Shown one piece after another: positions 7,982-42,883 of a stretch of 64,000 nt of DNA. Under the pieces are notes generated by a model. The model was not told the DNA's origin. It worked only from the letters and a program-made list of their open reading frames with translations, and searched no databases. The stretch comes from Candidatus Saccharimonadota bacterium (GTDB lineage: Bacteria > Patescibacteriota > Saccharimonadia > Saccharimonadales > Saccharimonadaceae). Both the position numbers and the translations under genes were made by a program. Within the stretch, counting starts at the first letter, position 1. The number at the start of each line of letters is the position of its first letter. Location of the stretch: assembly GCA_037141755.1 (NCBI GenBank), contig JBAXBX010000002.1, forward strand, positions 28,915 through 92,914. Direction: 5' to 3'.

Positions 7982-8611
7982 TTATTTATTCGCAAGTTGG
8001 TCTTTTATTTCATGCAATGTGTCGCGCATCTCTTCGTAATCTGAGACAAAATCAAGATACGATTGTCTAGAAGTAAATAACTCTAAAATTCTAGCTGAAG
8101 TAAGCCAGTTTGGTTCTTTGCCATGTACATAGAAACTTAGGCTTGAGTATTTATACTTTTCCCATAATCTGGGATTCAGGTAAATGTAGCGACTAATATG
8201 TTGCAAATATGATTCTTGATCTATCCTGACAGCCTTGTAACGACTTTCAAACACTGATCCAGTTCGTTTATACTTTAAGTTAAAATAACGACTATAGCTT
8301 GTCATTACGCAGCGCATAAGCTTTTCTAGATAGGGTGTATCGATTTGGTATATCAGCAGATGGAAATGATTAGTCATCAGGCAATATGCCAAAACTTCAA
8401 TCTGTCCAAGGAAGTTAGGGTATATCTCGTTTGTTTTGCTGATAGCAGGCTCCTCGGATAGATATCGTTCGAATAACTTAAGGAAGTACTTATAGTCAGC
8501 ACTTTCTATAAATAGTTTTTGCCTATTAATACCTCTGGCATAAACATGATAATAAGAATTAGGTACTTGATTCTTGATTATATTCCTAGATGGCATATGT
8601 TCATTATACAT
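7982..8611 (-). CDS. HUH/Y1 transposase (IS200-like / REP-associated tyrosine transposase-like)
   Basis: HUH motif in TNHFHLLIY, a catalytic-Tyr region SRYIYLNP, and the YHVYARG start typical of the PF01797-type fold. Confidence 0.8.
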   Translation of the reverse strand: MYNEHMPSRNIIKNQVPNSYYHVYARGINRQKLFIESADYKYFLKLFERYLSEEPAISKTNEIYPNFLGQIEVLAYCLMTNHFHLLIYQIDTPYLEKLMRCVMTSYSRYFNLKYKRTGSVFESRYKAVRIDQESYLQHISRYIYLNPRLWEKYKYSSLSFYVHGKEPNWLTSARILELFTSRQSYLDFVSDYEEMRDTLHEIKDQLANK

Positions 8612-10380: not shown

Positions 10381-11508
10381 GTGAAAAAAGTATTATTCAC
10401 AGCCACCGTTGATTCGCACATACTGGCATTTCATACGCCTTTTTTGAAGTACTTCAAGGAGAATGGCTATGAAGTTCACGTTGCGACAAACGGCACTGAA
10501 AATATACCTTATTGTGACAAAAAGCACGTTATTTCTTTCGAGCGTAGTCCATTTAAATTAAATAACCTTAGGGCAATCAGACAATTAAAAAAAGTTGTTG
10601 ACGCGGAACATTACGATATTATTCATACGCACACGCCAATGGGGGGGGTGGTAACTCGATTGGCGGCAATTGCGGCGCGTAAAAAAGGCACGCGAGTTAT
10701 CTATACAGCGCACGGATTTCACTTTTTTAAGGGCGCACCACTGATTAATTGGCTGACATATTATCCTATCGAAAAGTTAATGTCCAAATATACAGACACA
10801 TTGATAACTATCAATAACGAAGATTACGAACGCGCTAAAAGCAAATTCAAAACTGACATTCAATACGTCCCTGGTGTTGGTATCGACCCAAAAAAGTTCG
10901 ACTTCAAAATGTCAAAATCGCAAAAGTCAGAATTAAGACAATCTCTTGGGTTAGCTGATGATGATTTCGTCATGATTTATCCGGCCGAATTAAACAAGAA
11001 TAAAAATCAATTATGGTTAATTAAATCTATTGCAGATTTAATAAAAAATAACTCAAAAATACACTTATTACTACCAGGTGTCGACAGCCTAAACGGTAAA
11101 TGCCAAAAACTAGCAATAAAACTAGGTATTGATAAAAATATTCACTTTTTGGGATACAGAAAAGACATCCCTCAATTGCTAAAAATAGCAGATTTATCGG
11201 TCTCATCATCGTTGCGAGAGGGGTTGCCTGTGAATATCATGGAGGCGGCTTATCTAGGCCTGCCTATTATTGCGACTAATTGTCGAGGTAATCGAGACAT
11301 AGTTGCAGATACTAATAACGGAAAACTATATGACATAAATGATTCAGATAAAATTATTAATGAAGTTTTTGTTGTTTATAGTAGCATACGGCACCCCTAC
11401 GGTAATATTGCCGTAACGCCTCAAAAAAACAACATATATTCTCTATATATGATTATCTATAGGATGTCGGAAGTATATGATCATAGTGTGCGTGAGGCTA
11501 ATATATAA
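10381..11508 (+). CDS. glycosyltransferase family 4 (GT-B fold)
   Basis: REGLPVNIMEAAYLGLPIIAT (E-x7-E region). The N-terminal domain resembles Glyco_trans_4. Confidence 0.85.
   Translation: MKKVLFTATVDSHILAFHTPFLKYFKENGYEVHVATNGTENIPYCDKKHVISFERSPFKLNNLRAIRQLKKVVDAEHYDIIHTHTPMGGVVTRLAAIAARKKGTRVIYTAHGFHFFKGAPLINWLTYYPIEKLMSKYTDTLITINNEDYERAKSKFKTDIQYVPGVGIDPKKFDFKMSKSQKSELRQSLGLADDDFVMIYPAELNKNKNQLWLIKSIADLIKNNSKIHLLLPGVDSLNGKCQKLAIKLGIDKNIHFLGYRKDIPQLLKIADLSVSSSLREGLPVNIMEAAYLGLPIIATNCRGNRDIVADTNNGKLYDINDSDKIINEVFVVYSSIRHPYGNIAVTPQKNNIYSLYMIIYRMSEVYDHSVREANI
10641..10648 (+). repeat. G8 homopolymer inside the GT4 coding sequence
   Basis: atg ggg ggg gtg encodes M-G-G-V. It is one of only two G/C runs of 8 or more that I saw in the window. 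Confidence 0.9.
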
Positions 11509-27311: not shown

Positions 27312-27373
27312 ATTGGACTATTGTATCTGTTTTTTGGTGAATTGTCAAAGGGTAAAGTTGTTCGCTTACGGCA

Positions 27374-27422
27374 CGGGTCCTGCCGTCCGGTTTCCCCGGC
27401 CCAATCCCCACCGAACGTCACC
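27374..27422 (-). ncRNA. compact copy of a conserved bipartite structured motif
   Basis: The minus strand reads GGUGACGUUCGGUGGGG-auugggccgggga-AACCGGACGGCAGGACCCG. Both blocks are identical to 42777-42793 and 42843-42861. Confidence 0.5.
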
Positions 27423-27488
27423 TGTTTTAAATCTGTTACTTAGTCGAAAGTATAGTATACAACATTGAAAGGTGTAAATATCGTAAAT

Positions 27489-27553: not shown

Positions 27554-27580
27554 GTCAATCAGGGTTCAACCCTGATTGAC
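27554..27580. repeat. perfect 13-1-13 palindrome GTCAATCAGGGTT-C-AACCCTGATTGAC
   Basis: Seen directly. It lies in the divergent rpmE / DGR-target intergenic region. Confidence 0.85.
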
Positions 27581-27623: not shown

Positions 27624-27652
27624 TTGCATTTCTCTACGGGGGGGGCTACAAT
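27624..27652 (+). promoter_or_regulatory. putative promoter of the DGR target gene with a G8 tract in the spacer
   Basis: TTGCAT (27624-27629), then a 17-nt spacer containing G8 (27638-27645), then TACAAT (27647-27652). Confidence 0.5.
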
Positions 27653-27724
27653 AATAAGCATAAGTAATAATTAAGTTTTTTAAATGTATACACATAAGGG
27701 GTTATCCAAAATGAATAAAATATT

Positions 27725-28819
27725 ATGAATAAAATATTCTTAACTTCGAAAAATGAACCTGTCACTCTACCACCTACTACCTACAAACTACCATCTACCA
27801 AACCTGGTTTCACCCATGCTTCGCCAAGGCTACGCAGGATAAAGGTAGCTTCGCCAGCCTTTACAATCGTCGAACTCCTAGTAGTCATCGTAGTCATCGG
27901 TATCCTTGCCGCTATCACAATAGTTAGCTACACTGGTATCTCTCAAAAAGCTATTGTCGCCACCCTCCAATCTGATCTAGGCAATGCTTCAAAAACAATT
28001 AAGCTATATCAAGTCGAACAAGGACAATTTCCAACTTCCTTTGATGCCAACAATTGCCCAGTCCCAGCCAATGCCAGATACTGCCTGAAAGCCAGTTCAG
28101 GTAATACTTTTGACAGGACTGCCTATGCTGCATCTGTCAACAACTCGACTAATCCTCAAACCTTTACATTGGATGTTACTAATACCAATACGACTAAATA
28201 CCGCATTACTAATAATTCAGCACCAATAGCTGTATCTGCCACACCTGAAACACTAGCCGACACAGACCCAGCTAACTGGCTAGCCATAGGAACTCAGGTC
28301 TGGGGCAAATACAACCTTAACGTCGGTACTATGGTTACTGGCGTAACTGCTCAAACTAACAACTTAATCCTAGAAAAATACTGTTCCGCCAACACTGAAT
28401 CAAACTGCACAACCTACGGTGGTCTATACCAATGGGATGAAGCCATGCAATACGTCACAACTAACGGCGCTCAAGGCATCTGTCCAACTGGATCACATAT
28501 TCCATCTGACAACGATTGGAAGGTGTTAGAGGTTCAACTCGGTATGACTCAGGTGCAAGCTGATGCGATTGCTTGGCGCGGTACTAATCAAGGCACTCAA
28601 TTGAAAAATGGCGGAACGTCGGGGTTGAATATGCCGCTTGCCGGCCTCCGCTACACCGACGGGTCCTTCGACACTCTGTCGTCGTTCGCTTACTTGTGGT
28701 CTAGTTCGGAGTCGAGCACTAGTGCTTGGGAACGTACCTTGTACTCGGGTTACGCGACGGTGTACCGTGACACGCTTGGCAAGGCGGGCGGTTTTTCGGT
28801 ACGCTGCCTAGGAAATTGA
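27725..28819 (+). CDS. DGR variable protein: type IV pilin-like N-terminus fused to a FISUMP / C-type-lectin-fold domain
   Basis: Class III signal-like A|FTIVELLVVIVVIGILAAITIVSY. FISUMP-like YGGLYQWDEAM, CPTGSHIPSDNDW and GFSVRCLGN. The last ~62 codons are the VR. Confidence 0.9.
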   Translation: MNKIFLTSKNEPVTLPPTTYKLPSTKPGFTHASPRLRRIKVASPAFTIVELLVVIVVIGILAAITIVSYTGISQKAIVATLQSDLGNASKTIKLYQVEQGQFPTSFDANNCPVPANARYCLKASSGNTFDRTAYAASVNNSTNPQTFTLDVTNTNTTKYRITNNSAPIAVSATPETLADTDPANWLAIGTQVWGKYNLNVGTMVTGVTAQTNNLILEKYCSANTESNCTTYGGLYQWDEAMQYVTTNGAQGICPTGSHIPSDNDWKVLEVQLGMTQVQADAIAWRGTNQGTQLKNGGTSGLNMPLAGLRYTDGSFDTLSSFAYLWSSSESSTSAWERTLYSGYATVYRDTLGKAGGFSVRCLGN

Positions 28820-28821
28820 TT
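28634..28821 (+). repeat. DGR variable repeat (VR)
   Basis: 188-nt ungapped match to 29424-29611. It has 21 mismatches, 20 of them opposite TR adenines. Confidence 0.92.
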
Positions 28822-28935
28822 GTTCGATTTGACTATTTGACCCTTTGACTATTTTTGTACAAAATAAATTAGATTTGGCTGTTAAATATAAAATTTCGTG
28901 ATGGTATGTTTATTAAAATAAGGTGGATAAAAAAT

Positions 28936-29334
28936 ATGACGACATATTACAATTTGCCTGTTTATAAACAAAGTTATGATTTGCTTTTAGAGATATTTAA
29001 ATTGACGAAGGAATTTAATCGGGAATATAAATATACGATTGGTGAAGAACTAAAAAAAGAGACTACTGCAATGATAATCAATATTTATCGAGCTAATAGC
29101 AGCAATAATAAAGTCGATTATATCGTTAGTGCTAGGGAAAATATTGAGGTTATTCGATTATTGATTAGGCTGCTAAAAGATTTAAAACAAATTCAAGTGG
29201 CTAGAATTGCCAGATTAAATTTAGCGATCGAGGAACTGTCGAAACAGTTAACCGGTTGGGGAAATTATTCAAAAATAAATAGTGCTAAAGGGCCAGAACC
29301 ATTCGTTGCCAAGTTGGCGAGTGGGCGCGCCTAA
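28936..29334 (+). CDS. avd: Avd-like accessory protein (four-helix-bundle family)
   Basis: 132 aa. LPVYKQSYDLLLEIFKLTKEF..EYKYTIGEELKKE is typical of the four-helix-bundle / 23S IVS protein family. AGGTGGA RBS. It is positioned between VR and TR. Confidence 0.8.
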   Translation: MTTYYNLPVYKQSYDLLLEIFKLTKEFNREYKYTIGEELKKETTAMIINIYRANSSNNKVDYIVSARENIEVIRLLIRLLKDLKQIQVARIARLNLAIEELSKQLTGWGNYSKINSAKGPEPFVAKLASGRA

Positions 29335-29349
29335 TCAATTTAGTAATCT

Positions 29350-29376
29350 CCTCGCTTAGCGAGCGAGGTCTATAAT
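29350..29376 (+). promoter_or_regulatory. hairpin (CCTCGCT-tagcg-AGCGAGG) followed by TATAAT, a possible TR-RT promoter region
   Basis: Stem at 29350-29356 / 29362-29368 and a -10-like box at 29371-29376, about 48 nt upstream of the TR. Confidence 0.35.
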
Positions 29377-29423
29377 TTACCAAAAGACATTTTCTTTTAG
29401 TAAAGAGGTATATGATTACTGTC

Positions 29424-29611
29424 CCGCTTGCCGGCAACCGCAACACCGACGGGTCCTTCAACAATCTGTCGTCGAACGCTAACTTGTGGTCTAGTTCGGA
29501 GTCGAGCACTAGTGCTTGGGAACGTAACTTGAACTCGGGTAACGCGACGGTGAACCGTAACACGAATGACAAGGCGAACGGCTTTTCGGTACGATGCCTA
29601 GAAAATTGATT
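29424..29611 (+). repeat. DGR template repeat (TR), non-coding
   Basis: The VR homolog carries AAC/AAT wherever the VR codons vary. It ends 14 nt before the RT ATG. The 65-aa ORF called here is an artefact. Confidence 0.92.
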
Positions 29612-29625
29612 AAAAAGTAAAATAT

Positions 29626-30846
29626 ATGACAGAAAAACATATACAAATTACTCACGAATATAGCCTGATTGAGGATATCTTTCAGGCTTATTATGATGCT
29701 CGTAAAAATAAACGAAATTCTAATAGTTCTTTGGGATTTGAACTTGAATATGAGAAAAACTTGGTACAACTCTTCCACGAAATTAATGAACGAAGTTACA
29801 AGCCCAGGCCTTATTCTGCATTTATTATCGAAAAACCAGTCAAAAGAGAAGTTTTTGCAAGTGAGTTTAGGGATAGAGTAGTCCATCATCTGATATTTAA
29901 TTATATTAATCCAATATTCGACCCACTTTTTATAAATGATAGTTACAGTTGTCGCGTAAATAAAGGTACTTCGTATGGTATAAAAAGAGCTGACTATTTT
30001 ATAAAGTCATGTAGCCAAAACTATAAAAAAGACGCCTACATAATGAAATTAGATGTAGAAGGTTATTTTATGTCGATTGATAAAACGATACTTTTTGAAA
30101 TTATTAAAACGCAAATTATTAAACGTCAAGACAAGTTGATTTGTGAGTTAGATTTAATATTATTTTTGGTTGAAAAGGTTATTTTTTGCGACCCAACGAA
30201 AGATTGCATAATTAAAAGTGGGCGAGAGTCGTGGCAAGGGTTGCCAAAATCAAAAAGTCTGTTCTTTTCTGGTAAAAATAAAGGTCTACCGATAGGTAAT
30301 TTGACATCTCAGCTTTTCGCAAATATTTATCTGAATGAAATTGATCAATTCATAAAACGGGAGCTAAAATTTAAATATTACGGACGATATGTGGATGATA
30401 TGATTTTTGTCGATAATGATAAAGAGCGATTAATATGGGCTATTAAAGAAATTAAAAAATATTTAGCGTCCAATTTATCATTAAAGCTTCATCCAAAGAA
30501 AATATATTTGCAGAACTCCAATAAGGGAGTTAATTTTTTAGGCGCATTTATAAAACCATATAGGATTTTAGTCGGGAAAAGAATAAAAAGTAATTTATAT
30601 CGTAAAGTGTATGAAGGACTATATATTTTGAACTATTCGAATGCTAAAATCAGTGATTTTGATAAAAATTTTGAATTTAAACAATTAATTAATTCATATT
30701 TTGGTATATTAAAACAGGCAAATTCTTATACATTCAGAAAAGGAGTCGTAGAATTAATTGTCGATATATCTAGAGGTGATTTTGTGCCAAATGATGATTT
30801 TAGTGTGATAAGTTTATGTAAAAAATATACAGTTTTGAAAGTGTGA
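29626..30846 (+). CDS. DGR-type reverse transcriptase
   Basis: LPIGNLTSQLFANIYL (DGR-type motif 4), catalytic YVDD, and an RVVHHL fingers region. 406 aa. Confidence 0.9.
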   Translation: MTEKHIQITHEYSLIEDIFQAYYDARKNKRNSNSSLGFELEYEKNLVQLFHEINERSYKPRPYSAFIIEKPVKREVFASEFRDRVVHHLIFNYINPIFDPLFINDSYSCRVNKGTSYGIKRADYFIKSCSQNYKKDAYIMKLDVEGYFMSIDKTILFEIIKTQIIKRQDKLICELDLILFLVEKVIFCDPTKDCIIKSGRESWQGLPKSKSLFFSGKNKGLPIGNLTSQLFANIYLNEIDQFIKRELKFKYYGRYVDDMIFVDNDKERLIWAIKEIKKYLASNLSLKLHPKKIYLQNSNKGVNFLGAFIKPYRILVGKRIKSNLYRKVYEGLYILNYSNAKISDFDKNFEFKQLINSYFGILKQANSYTFRKGVVELIVDISRGDFVPNDDFSVISLCKKYTVLKV

Positions 30847-30853
30847 AGGGATG

Positions 30854-30972
30854 CGTCCAACACCACTTGGTTTATTGCAAACGGATGCGAAGCGGTAGCG
30901 GAGGCCGAACGCCACGTGCTGACGAAGTCACACGTAGAGTGGCCGTTTGTATGAACTTAGTGGTGGTGGACG
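30854..30972 (+). ncRNA. GC-rich structured element downstream of the RT (candidate ncRNA, function unknown)
   Basis: Nested stems: 30854-30867 with 30959-30972 (13 of 14 bp), 30877-30884 with 30943-30950, and an inner hairpin at 30914-30935 with a GAA loop. It is markedly GC-rich compared with its surroundings. Confidence 0.35.
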
Positions 30973-42749: not shown

Positions 42750-42883
42750 AACCTGAGTTGTAAAACCCAAACCGCGGGTGACGTTCGGTGGGGCGACCCC
42801 AATATTGTTTTGTTTGTAATCGAACAAAAAATATTAGGGGTGAACCGGACGGCAGGACCCGAGGGGGTTTTGCAACTCAGGTT
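42750..42883 (+). ncRNA. extended copy of the conserved bipartite structured motif, closed by a 19-bp outer stem
   Basis: Outer stem 42750-42768 / 42865-42883. The core blocks 42777-42793 and 42843-42861 are identical to the rpmE-side copy. An inserted hairpin lies at 42797-42840. Confidence 0.5.

Follow-up and report, generated by a model that had tools for sequence, protein, structure and literature searches.

What is a pair of imperfect 188-nt repeats doing when one copy closes the reading frame of a pilin-like gene and the other lies in non-coding DNA beside a gene for a reverse transcriptase (RT)? The question is raised by a stretch of 64,000 nt from Candidatus Saccharibacteria (GenBank assembly GCA_037141755.1, contig JBAXBX010000002.1, positions 28,915 to 92,914, forward strand), which we call the window and number from its first nucleotide. 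Our answer is that the two copies are very probably the variable repeat (VR) and the template repeat (TR) of a chromosomal diversity-generating retroelement (DGR) that diversifies a modular type IV pilin. This answer is carried by an adenine-specific pattern of differences between the repeats, a complete DGR cassette around them, pilin and FISUMP signatures in the target protein, and recurrence of the whole arrangement across a clade of related loci.

The two repeats differ almost exclusively at template adenines

The repeats had been aligned by hand in an initial annotation of the locus, and a scripted recount reproduces every number of that alignment. VR and TR pair over 188 nt without a gap, at a constant offset of 790 nt. 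The features needed here, including the TR counterpart (IMH*) of a candidate initiation of mutagenic homing (IMH) segment, are the following.

28634..28821, + strand: variable repeat (VR), comprising the last 62 codons of the target gene, its stop codon and 2 nt
29424..29611, + strand: template repeat (TR), non-coding in its context, with 48 adenines and with IMH* at 29579-29611
28634..28788, + strand: mutagenised part of the VR, in which 18 of the 40 adenine-templated positions differ from the TR

The TR is composed of 48 A, 51 G, 48 C and 41 T. Rather than being spread independently of the TR base, 20 of the 21 mismatches fall on TR adenines, and the remaining one is a TR C (C29582) that reads T in the VR (T28792). 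The hypergeometric probability of placing at least 20 of 21 mismatches on the 48 adenines is 6.7e-13, and the contrast originally reported, 20 of 48 adenines differing against 1 of 140 other positions, agrees with our count. VR and TR are therefore identical at 139 of 140 non-A sites. At the template adenines the VR carries A to T nine times, A to G six times and A to C five times. When the TR was compared by blastn to the whole window, the VR was its single match (E = 1.6e-63), and the pair was also recovered independently by a repeat search of the window.

At the protein level, the changes are concentrated in AAY (AAC or AAT) codons. The TR holds 14 of these in frame, and 13 are changed in the VR, from N to L, Y, D, T, F, Y, T, Y, Y, Y, D, L and G, respectively. 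The earlier statement that every AAY codon has diverged is thus right for the mutable part of the TR but not for the TR as a whole, since the final codon (AAT, at 29604 in the TR and 28814 in the VR) is unchanged, which fits the restriction to a mutable part. The other codon changes had also been listed correctly (GAC to GGC, GAA to GGA, and CGA to CGC, which is silent), and the lone change at a non-A site, GGC to GGT, is silent as well. Within the mutagenised part, 17 of 26 adenines in AAY codons are changed, compared to 1 of 14 other adenines (Fisher P = 6e-4), which indicates that the VR has been filtered by selection for a working scaffold. Since NNC codons reach 15 amino acids and no stop codon, the 13 AAY codons allow 15^13 = 1.9e15 proteins, as had been calculated (about 2e15). 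The homology was said to run 2 nt beyond the stop codon of the target, and it does so, the TGA lying at 28817-28819 and the match ending at 28821.

Some further candidates around the repeats were rejected. Open reading frames (ORFs) at 29412-29609 and 28638-28811 are by-products of the repeat and not genes. A 13-nt inverted match between VR 28642-28654 and 30895-30907, and a 12/13 match between 27357-27369 and VR 28681-28693, both follow the VR state and not the TR state; we judged them to be due to chance because blastn gives E = 0.43 and neither extends.

A complete DGR cassette lies on one strand

The initial annotation read the repeats as part of a DGR, and none of the expected components is missing: they share one strand and follow the expected order (target, avd, TR, RT).

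27725..28819, + strand: DGR target gene, 364 aa, modular type IV pilin-like, with a prepilin signal, a pilin domain and a FISUMP domain
28936..29334, + strand: avd, 132 aa, preceded by the Shine-Dalgarno-like sequence AAGGTGG, with an alternative start at 28906
29626..30846, + strand: DGR reverse transcriptase, 406 aa, with an RVT_1 match and the motifs IGNLTSQ and YVDD

The TR sits in non-coding DNA between avd and the RT gene, its adenines being on the coding strand of the RT, and ends 14 nt before the RT start. Avd is an accessory protein that is common, although not universal, in DGRs. The window Avd matches the Pfam bAvd family with 56.2 bits (cut-off 40), while its NCBIfam DivGenRetAVD score of 53.9 bits is under the cut-off of 80. 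As for the RT, it displays IGNLTSQ at aa 223-229 and YVDD at aa 255-258, and the [I/V/L]GxxxSQ motif is diagnostic for the DGR lineage of RTs. Its best relative in the PDB is 8ub7 (E = 2.4e-34), labelled just "Reverse transcriptase," which we take to be the Bordetella DGR RT (bRT); IGSLTSQLFANVY is part of the aligned region, including the DGR-type IGxxxSQ motif. The best match to a group II intron RT in the same search is far weaker (E = 4.7e-11). The reading frames of both RT and avd are intact, and the catalytic motifs are present.

The target combines a prepilin signal, a pilin domain and a FISUMP domain

In the target protein, a 45-aa leader precedes a pilin domain that covers about aa 46-175, and a FISUMP (Fib_succ_major) domain follows at aa 187-362. 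Prepilin cleavage is predicted between A45 and F46, where SPA is followed by FTIVELLVVIVVIGILAAITIV (FTIVELLVVIVVIGILAAI), the mature protein starting with FTIVELLVV and having a Glu at position +5. This motif scores 20.6 bits with TIGR02532 (cut-off 16.3) and 18.9 bits with Pfam N_methyl, slightly under the cut-off of 21.2, and F46 aligns with residue 1 of the mature PilA, PilE, GspG and geopilin structures in the PDB. In an AlphaFold2 (AF2) model, a helix spanning residues 48-99 is followed by a β-sheet with strands between residues 127 and 170, at a predicted local distance difference test (pLDDT) score of 85-94. The pilin part is thus predicted with confidence to adopt the "lollipop" fold of type IV pilins, in which a long α-1 helix packs on a β-sheet; the best Foldseek match of the target, the Neisseria gonorrhoeae pilus 5vxx, is not significant (E = 0.53).

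The C-terminal domain is assigned by sequence, both PF09603 (110.3 bits, cut-off 33.9) and TIGR02145 (86 bits, cut-off 41.65) matching aa 186-362. VRs in Fib_succ_major, DUF1566 and DUF823 domains form the C-type-lectin class CLec2, which is typified by Legionella LdtA (PMC5758913). More than 4,500 homologues of the target are found in public data; they share the architecture in which a pilin is joined to a FISUMP domain and are mostly annotated as pilin plus TIGR02145. Type IV pili are near-universal in Saccharibacteria and, together with lectin-like minor pilins, mediate binding to the host (PMC11623550).

The arrangement recurs in related loci and AAY-templated codons vary across homologues

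Related loci were collected by scanning metagenome contigs with the window RT, which yielded 74 RT loci. In 36 of them, a TR and a VR align ungapped over at least 100 nt, with mismatches mostly at TR A and with an identical gene order. A scan of genomes based on target alignment showed that DGRs adjoin pilin/FISUMP targets in other lineages of the candidate phyla radiation (CPR), while most FISUMP paralogues of Bacteroidota and Ignavibacteria have no DGR. Relatives of the RT in genome records include those of the CPR lineages Moranbacteria and Nomurabacteria. Of the 22 clade targets that were scored as complete, 8 have a prepilin motif, including targets at loci whose RT is just 54-55% identical to that of the window.

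The pattern of variability in the family mirrors the TR. The VR-region consensus of 50 homologues reads PLAGxRxTDGSFxxLSSxAxLWSSSESSTSAWxRxLxSGxATVxRxxxxKxxGFSVRCLGN, in which the x positions include all 13 diversified AAY codons of the window TR plus three other A-containing codons. Entropy in these homologues is about 3 bits at AAY-templated codons, against a mean of 0.75 bits at codons without A at positions 1-2 (Mann-Whitney P = 2e-7), and the residues found at the AAY-templated codons (Y, N, D, G, S, F, L, V, T, I, H and A) are those of the AAY repertoire.

The cassette, in contrast, does not keep to one location. At 15 related loci tested, it is never next to rpsB, tsf or rpmE, and in a strain that is 95.5% identical (L166) homology to the window stops at 27353. 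An exact empty site for the cassette was looked for, and none was found. One Moranbacteria contig (L013, 1776-3736) harbors two DGRs about 5 kb apart, the second of which has a 119-nt TR/VR pair whose 15 mismatches are all at A, its RT being only 37% identical to that of the window.

Candidate donor and recipient marks flank the repeats

Three elements around the repeats could tell TR and VR apart.

28789..28821, + strand: candidate IMH, the undiversified 3' segment of the VR, its function being proposed by analogy with the Bordetella IMH (PMC5758913)
29337..29429, + strand: structured RNA directly 5' of the TR, the sole match in the window to covariance model R1 (32.3 bits)
28826..28853, + strand: three tandem 8-nt units, (A/C)TTTGAC(T/C), starting 5 nt past the end of VR homology

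As for the first, the last diversified codon is at 28787-28788, and the final 33 nt of the VR differ from the TR at three sites, namely 28792 (VR T, TR C), 28804 (VR C, TR A) and 28812 (VR G, TR A). The last two had been noted to lie where an IMH/IMH* distinction would be expected, and this finds support for one of them. The difference at 28812 (VR GGA, TR GAA) is found in 6/6 close-clade VR/TR pairs, one of which has GGG in its VR and another of which is aligned via a 1-nt indel, and the A opposite it is retained in 10/10 close-clade TRs. This codon encodes Gly in 42 of 50 homologues. The AAT-templated residue at the end of the protein is Asn in 44 of 50. The difference at 28804, on the other hand, is private to the window, as is that at 28792. 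In distant clades there are fixed non-A differences at the same place, for example, TR CAC or TGG against VR AAC or TAG. A TR A conserved opposite a VR G appears to be better explained as a fixed donor/recipient difference than as the outcome of repeated mutagenesis and selection, and this conservation leads us to read 28789-28821 as the putative IMH and 29579-29611 as the putative IMH*.

The second element is a predicted RNA that abuts the TR. A helix P0 (29341-29348 with 29414-29421) encloses P1 (29350-29356 with 29362-29368) and further hairpins, making two or three inside, and the 3' strand of P0 stops 2-4 nt short of the TR. The covariance model, which was built from distant relatives, places this RNA ahead of the TR at 62 loci, every time on the + strand. 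In an alignment of 56 distinct sequences, the paired share of cells is 95.7%, and compensatory changes are seen at 24 of 27 pairs. The covariation score reaches 0.496, whereas shuffles score 0.196 and slid controls do not exceed 0.127. All of these figures are flattered by an alignment that was itself fitted to the model. The window sequence folded alone gives the same helices (z = -3.97). Comparative analysis thus predicts a conserved four-helix RNA next to the TR, with strong covariation support. No Rfam family for this RNA was found and no Rfam model matches in the window at its gathering threshold, weak matches around the cassette being dismissed as meaningless. A TATAAT at 29371 was rejected as a TR promoter, as the hexamer is unconserved in relatives and lies inside the conserved structure.

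On the other side of the TR, the first 20 codons of the RT (29626-29685) have a third-position identity of 0.89, against 0.51-0.71 elsewhere in the gene. This conservation of synonymous sites suggests an overlapping cis-acting RNA, possibly an equivalent of the Bordetella spacer. In two close relatives (L084 1336-1389 and L086 3946-4000), a 40-nt hairpin, GTCTTCCAGAGGATAATCCTCTGGAAGA, is inserted between the TR and the RT start; a hairpin occurs there in many distant relatives too, and the window is without one.

The third element is the only TTTGAC cluster in the 64 kb. In 37 nonredundant related loci, the density of TTGAC per 80 nt is 1.46 after the VR, compared to 0.08 after the TR and 0.095 in the background. 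TTTGAC units with a period of 8-9 nt are seen past the VR stop codon, and not past the TR, in most loci of the clade, and in some (L085, L122 and L148) a GC-rich hairpin lies between them. The repeats may be -35 boxes of an avd-TR-RT promoter, and the rpmE promoter has a similar TTTAC/TTGACA pair ahead of a good -10 element; alternatively, they may mark the recipient site. TTGAC arrays are mostly absent downstream of pilin-FISUMP paralogues without an adjacent DGR, which fits both possibilities and so does not discriminate between them. In a survey of DGRs, the only elements reported after the IMH are GC-rich inverted repeats, in 34% of DGRs (PMC5758913). Finally, a 22-nt inverted repeat with 82% complementarity (27340-27361 and 28832-28853) flanks the target gene, its left arm overlapping the predicted rpmE promoter (TTGACA-17-TACAAT, minus strand) and its right arm being the TTGAC array itself.

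Simple-sequence repeats mark the 5' end of pilin targets

Upstream of the region that is diversified, the target gene bears repeats of a different kind, also found at pilin targets of related loci.

27624..27652, + strand: putative target promoter, TTGCAT and TACAAT separated by a 17-nt spacer
27711..27738, + strand: 14-nt tandem duplication, two copies of ATGAATAAAATATT, from a repeat search and reading of the sequence
Related loci: simple-sequence repeats at pilin targets, L006 5397-5422; L085 1777-1794; L086 2093-2116; L089 2097-2108; L117 141-149; L149 41-61 and 117-128; L012 5974-5982; L104 93-113

The spacer of the putative promoter contains a G8 homopolymer (27638-27645), which makes it a candidate tract for slipped-strand phase variation. 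G/C runs of at least 8 nt occur twice in the window, against 0.30 expected. The other, also G8 (10641-10648), is inside a glycosyltransferase ORF (10381-11508) of a surface-polysaccharide cluster and may represent a second phase-variable locus. As for the tandem duplication, the ATG nearest to a Shine-Dalgarno-like sequence, at 27711, is out of frame and opens a five-codon mini-ORF whose TGA overlaps the ATG of the target at 27725. At the equivalent 5' position, related DGR pilin targets have G9, G12, G21 or (CT)6-13 tracts. In 1.08 Mb of loci, 8 of 18 simple-sequence repeats are within 400 nt upstream of a prepilin motif, compared to 0.25 expected (P = 3e-10), which suggests that slipped-strand phase variation is layered over DGR diversification. 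About 145 nt before the target start codon there is in addition a perfect palindrome of 13+13 nt (GTCAATCAGGGTT c AACCCTGATTGAC, 27554-27580), which could be an operator or a terminator, and a comparable GC palindrome is present at the equivalent place in L006.

Genomic setting

The window is identical in sequence to ENA contig ERZ27299975:k141_711519. Housekeeping genes flank the cassette, with prmC, prfA and rpmE on its upstream side and rpsB, tsf, frr and uppS on its downstream side, and with parAB, secA and the polysaccharide synthesis cluster farther away. Beside this cluster is a gene on the minus strand (7982-8611) for an IS200/IS605-type Y1 transposase (PF01797).

Two other features were noted near the cassette. 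The gap between RT and rpsB contains a GC-richer, non-coding segment (30854-30972) that folds into a long imperfect hairpin with a minimum free energy of -63.6 kcal/mol (z = -4.0), a stability reached by none of 200 shuffles. Neither an Rfam match nor a homologue in the related loci was obtained for this segment. Inside it, at 30912-30941, Logan contigs of two separate runs terminate or begin, which hints at a branch point of the assembly graph caused by a repeat or by strain variation. In addition, a GC-rich element occurs twice in inverted orientation, at 27357-27425 and, on the opposite strand, at 42777-42861. The two copies match exactly in cores of 19 and 17 nt, and about 36 nt are inserted in the second. 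The first lies just past 27353, where homology to L166 stops. ARAGORN called no tRNA there.

Proposed mechanism and comparison with known systems

From these features we infer cDNA synthesis and homing, the position of the IMH, pilus display, the nature of the ligand and present-day activity, as follows. The avd-TR-RT segment would be transcribed as a unit, and RT and Avd would copy the TR RNA into cDNA, placing random nucleotides opposite template adenines. The cDNA would then replace the VR at the 3' end of the target, up to the boundary near 28789 (the putative IMH), with the TR not being overwritten. The 13 AAY codons would be the designed variable positions, while changes at other adenines would be purged by selection. 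The prepilin signal and the N-terminal helix would insert the target into a type IV pilus, where the C-terminal FISUMP domain, predicted to be C-type-lectin-like, would present the variable residues, most plausibly for binding to surface structures of host bacteria.

The DGR of Bordetella phage BPP-1 (mtd-avd-TR-brt) resembles this system in its gene order (target, avd, TR, RT), in adenine-specific mutagenesis of AAY codons in a C-terminal VR, and in an undiversified 3' segment with a few VR/TR differences (IMH/IMH* in BPP-1, putative in the window), and its RT, which we take 8ub7 to be, is the closest solved relative of the window RT. However, the window DGR is chromosomal, among housekeeping genes and not in a phage, and its target is a pilin-FISUMP protein and not a tail fibre. 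Its TR-RT gap is only 14 nt, so that any spacer-like RNA must overlap the RT coding sequence, and its VR is followed by TTGAC tandem repeats instead of a GC-rich inverted repeat. The LdtA DGR of Legionella pneumophila is similar in having a C-terminal VR in a Fib_succ_major/DUF1566-type (CLec2) domain of a surface-exposed protein (PMC5758913) and the Architecture B order of avd, TR and RT. LdtA is, however, anchored as a lipoprotein, unlike the window target with its type IV prepilin signal and pilin domain.

Among cellular systems, the DGRs of CPR and DPANN genomes ("clade 2" of Roux et al. 2021, PMC8144416) are close to the window DGR, a cellular, chromosomal element whose host is a metagenome-assembled Saccharibacteria genome. 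Targets of CPR clade 2 typically lack a recognisable transmembrane or other conserved domain (PMC8144416); by contrast, in the window target a prepilin signal is clear, as are a pilin domain and a FISUMP domain. The Bacteroides Type V pili with DGR-diversified tips offer a parallel in which a DGR varies the ligand-binding C-terminal head of a pilus subunit. They are nevertheless an unrelated pilus system, assembled from lipoproteins with the help of a protease and not through a prepilin peptidase, in a different phylum, and their DGRs are on integrative and conjugative elements or phages.

In Neisseria, type IV pilin variation proceeds by gene conversion from silent pilS copies and not by reverse transcription. 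Programmed variation of a type IV pilin together with switching by simple-sequence repeats would nonetheless be a feature common to both systems (PMC12871193). A pilin module joined to a lectin-like C-terminal module implicated in adhesion or host binding is found in PilB of Streptococcus sanguinis (PMC8179133) and in the Saccharibacteria proteins PilX1 and PilX2 (PMC11623550), for which, within the same sources, hypermutation is not reported. The PilX modules, moreover, are a β-jelly-roll or a β-propeller and not FISUMP (PMC11623550). FISUMP has been listed before as a domain of DGR targets, and the rare VR-bearing domains include a "GspG-type pilin" (PMC11661182), while DGRs themselves are abundant and well catalogued in CPR bacteria (PMC8144416). 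In the literature that we searched, which did not extend to Paul et al. 2017, we found no description of DGR-diversified type IV pilins. The window DGR is therefore a well-known kind of system with a little-described target.

Weighing the alternatives

Does the evidence call for an active DGR, and for a pilus subunit? Several observations weigh against parts of our answer. As regards activity, no direct evidence that it continues today was found, and public data yield no VR variants: the 90% identity clusters of the target and of the RT have one member each, and exact-protein look-ups with RT, Avd, target, RpsB and RpmE return only the same VR. The four long contigs in which avd and the RT gene occur all encode an identical target protein, the first 88 nt of the VR recur without a mismatch in a Logan contig from run SRR7053307, and the VR has its one mismatch at a non-A site (28792). 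As regards the target, the full-length AF2 model (pLDDT 69.8) is good for the pilin part only, the FISUMP region scoring 45-85, and a model of the FISUMP domain alone is unusable (pLDDT 44.8). With these low-confidence models, Foldseek found no lectin match for the FISUMP domain in the PDB (nothing at E < 0.5), and a sequence profile search of the PDB returned pilins only and no lectin. There are no genes for type IV pilus machinery (pilB, pilC, pilD or pilM) in the 64-kb window, and the 45-aa leader is long compared to a family median of 21 residues.

The first set of observations might mean that the DGR is intact but silent, or very rarely active, with a frozen VR whose differences from the TR were left by past homing and fixed by selection. 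We consider this a real possibility, although an unlikely one. It would account for a VR that is identical in every assembly and run retrieved and that has gained a synonymous non-A mismatch, and the G8 tract in the putative promoter and the 14-nt duplication at the start codon could mean that the target is expressed at a low level. However, the RT and avd frames are intact and the catalytic motifs are present. Furthermore, consensus assemblies cannot reveal minority variants, and those with the identical VR are possibly not independent samples, as they may derive from the same data. The orthologous TRs of relatives differ at many non-A sites, and against this divergence the identity of VR and TR at 139 of 140 such sites in the window implies recent homogenisation by homing.

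The lack of pilus machinery genes in the window bears on whether the DGR, while real, acts on a protein that never enters a pilus, its prepilin-like N-terminus being a membrane anchor or a pseudopilin-type export signal that leaves the variable domain at the cell surface. This seems rather improbable to us. A mature protein of about 319 aa is far above the size of major pilins, the neighborhood is devoid of pilus genes, and the NCBIfam matches of the target include the type II secretion system pseudopilins GspG and GspH, albeit all under their cut-offs. Nevertheless, a class III signal with Glu at +5 and an α-1 helix of about 52 residues are the features needed for incorporation into filaments, and modular pilins with a lectin head do enter pili, as illustrated by S. 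sanguinis PilB (PMC8179133) and by the predicted modular pilins PilX1 and PilX2 of TM7x (PMC11623550). Finally, the TR could be a pseudogene fragment, left by ordinary duplication of the 3' end of the gene and diverged by normal mutation, or an assembly artefact. This explanation has the bare existence of the repeat in its favor and nothing more, and is extremely improbable: it is refuted by mismatches that fall on one base of one copy (P = 6.7e-13), and against it also stand an adenine-rich copy sitting between avd and a DGR-type RT, recurrence of the arrangement in dozens of loci and an identical sequence in four assemblies.

Implications for Saccharibacteria and for DGRs

A chromosomal DGR that diversifies a modular type IV pilin would matter first because what CPR DGRs diversify is unclear, CPR targets being mostly without recognisable domains (PMC8144416). 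In the window the target is readable, as a type IV pilin with a variable head that is predicted to be lectin-like. Type IV pili are what Saccharibacteria use to attach to their hosts (PMC11623550), so that a concrete hypothesis follows, namely tuning of host recognition by DGRs in episymbionts. It can be tested because Saccharibacteria are now genetically tractable (PMC10633639).

We advance more tentatively, as a doubtful possibility, the idea that this clade has its own cis marks (the four-helix RNA at the TR, TTGAC at the IMH and the A/G switch) and that its pilin targets are switched by poly-G or (CT)n tracts. If true, an episymbiont would possess a pilus adhesin with two programmed layers, its specificity being set by the DGR and its expression by slipped-strand events. 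How donor and recipient are discriminated in DGRs without a Bordetella-type cruciform might be approached through the conserved RNA junction, the TTGAC repeats specific to VRs and the conserved single-base difference between TR and VR, and these cis features of the window deserve the attention of specialists.

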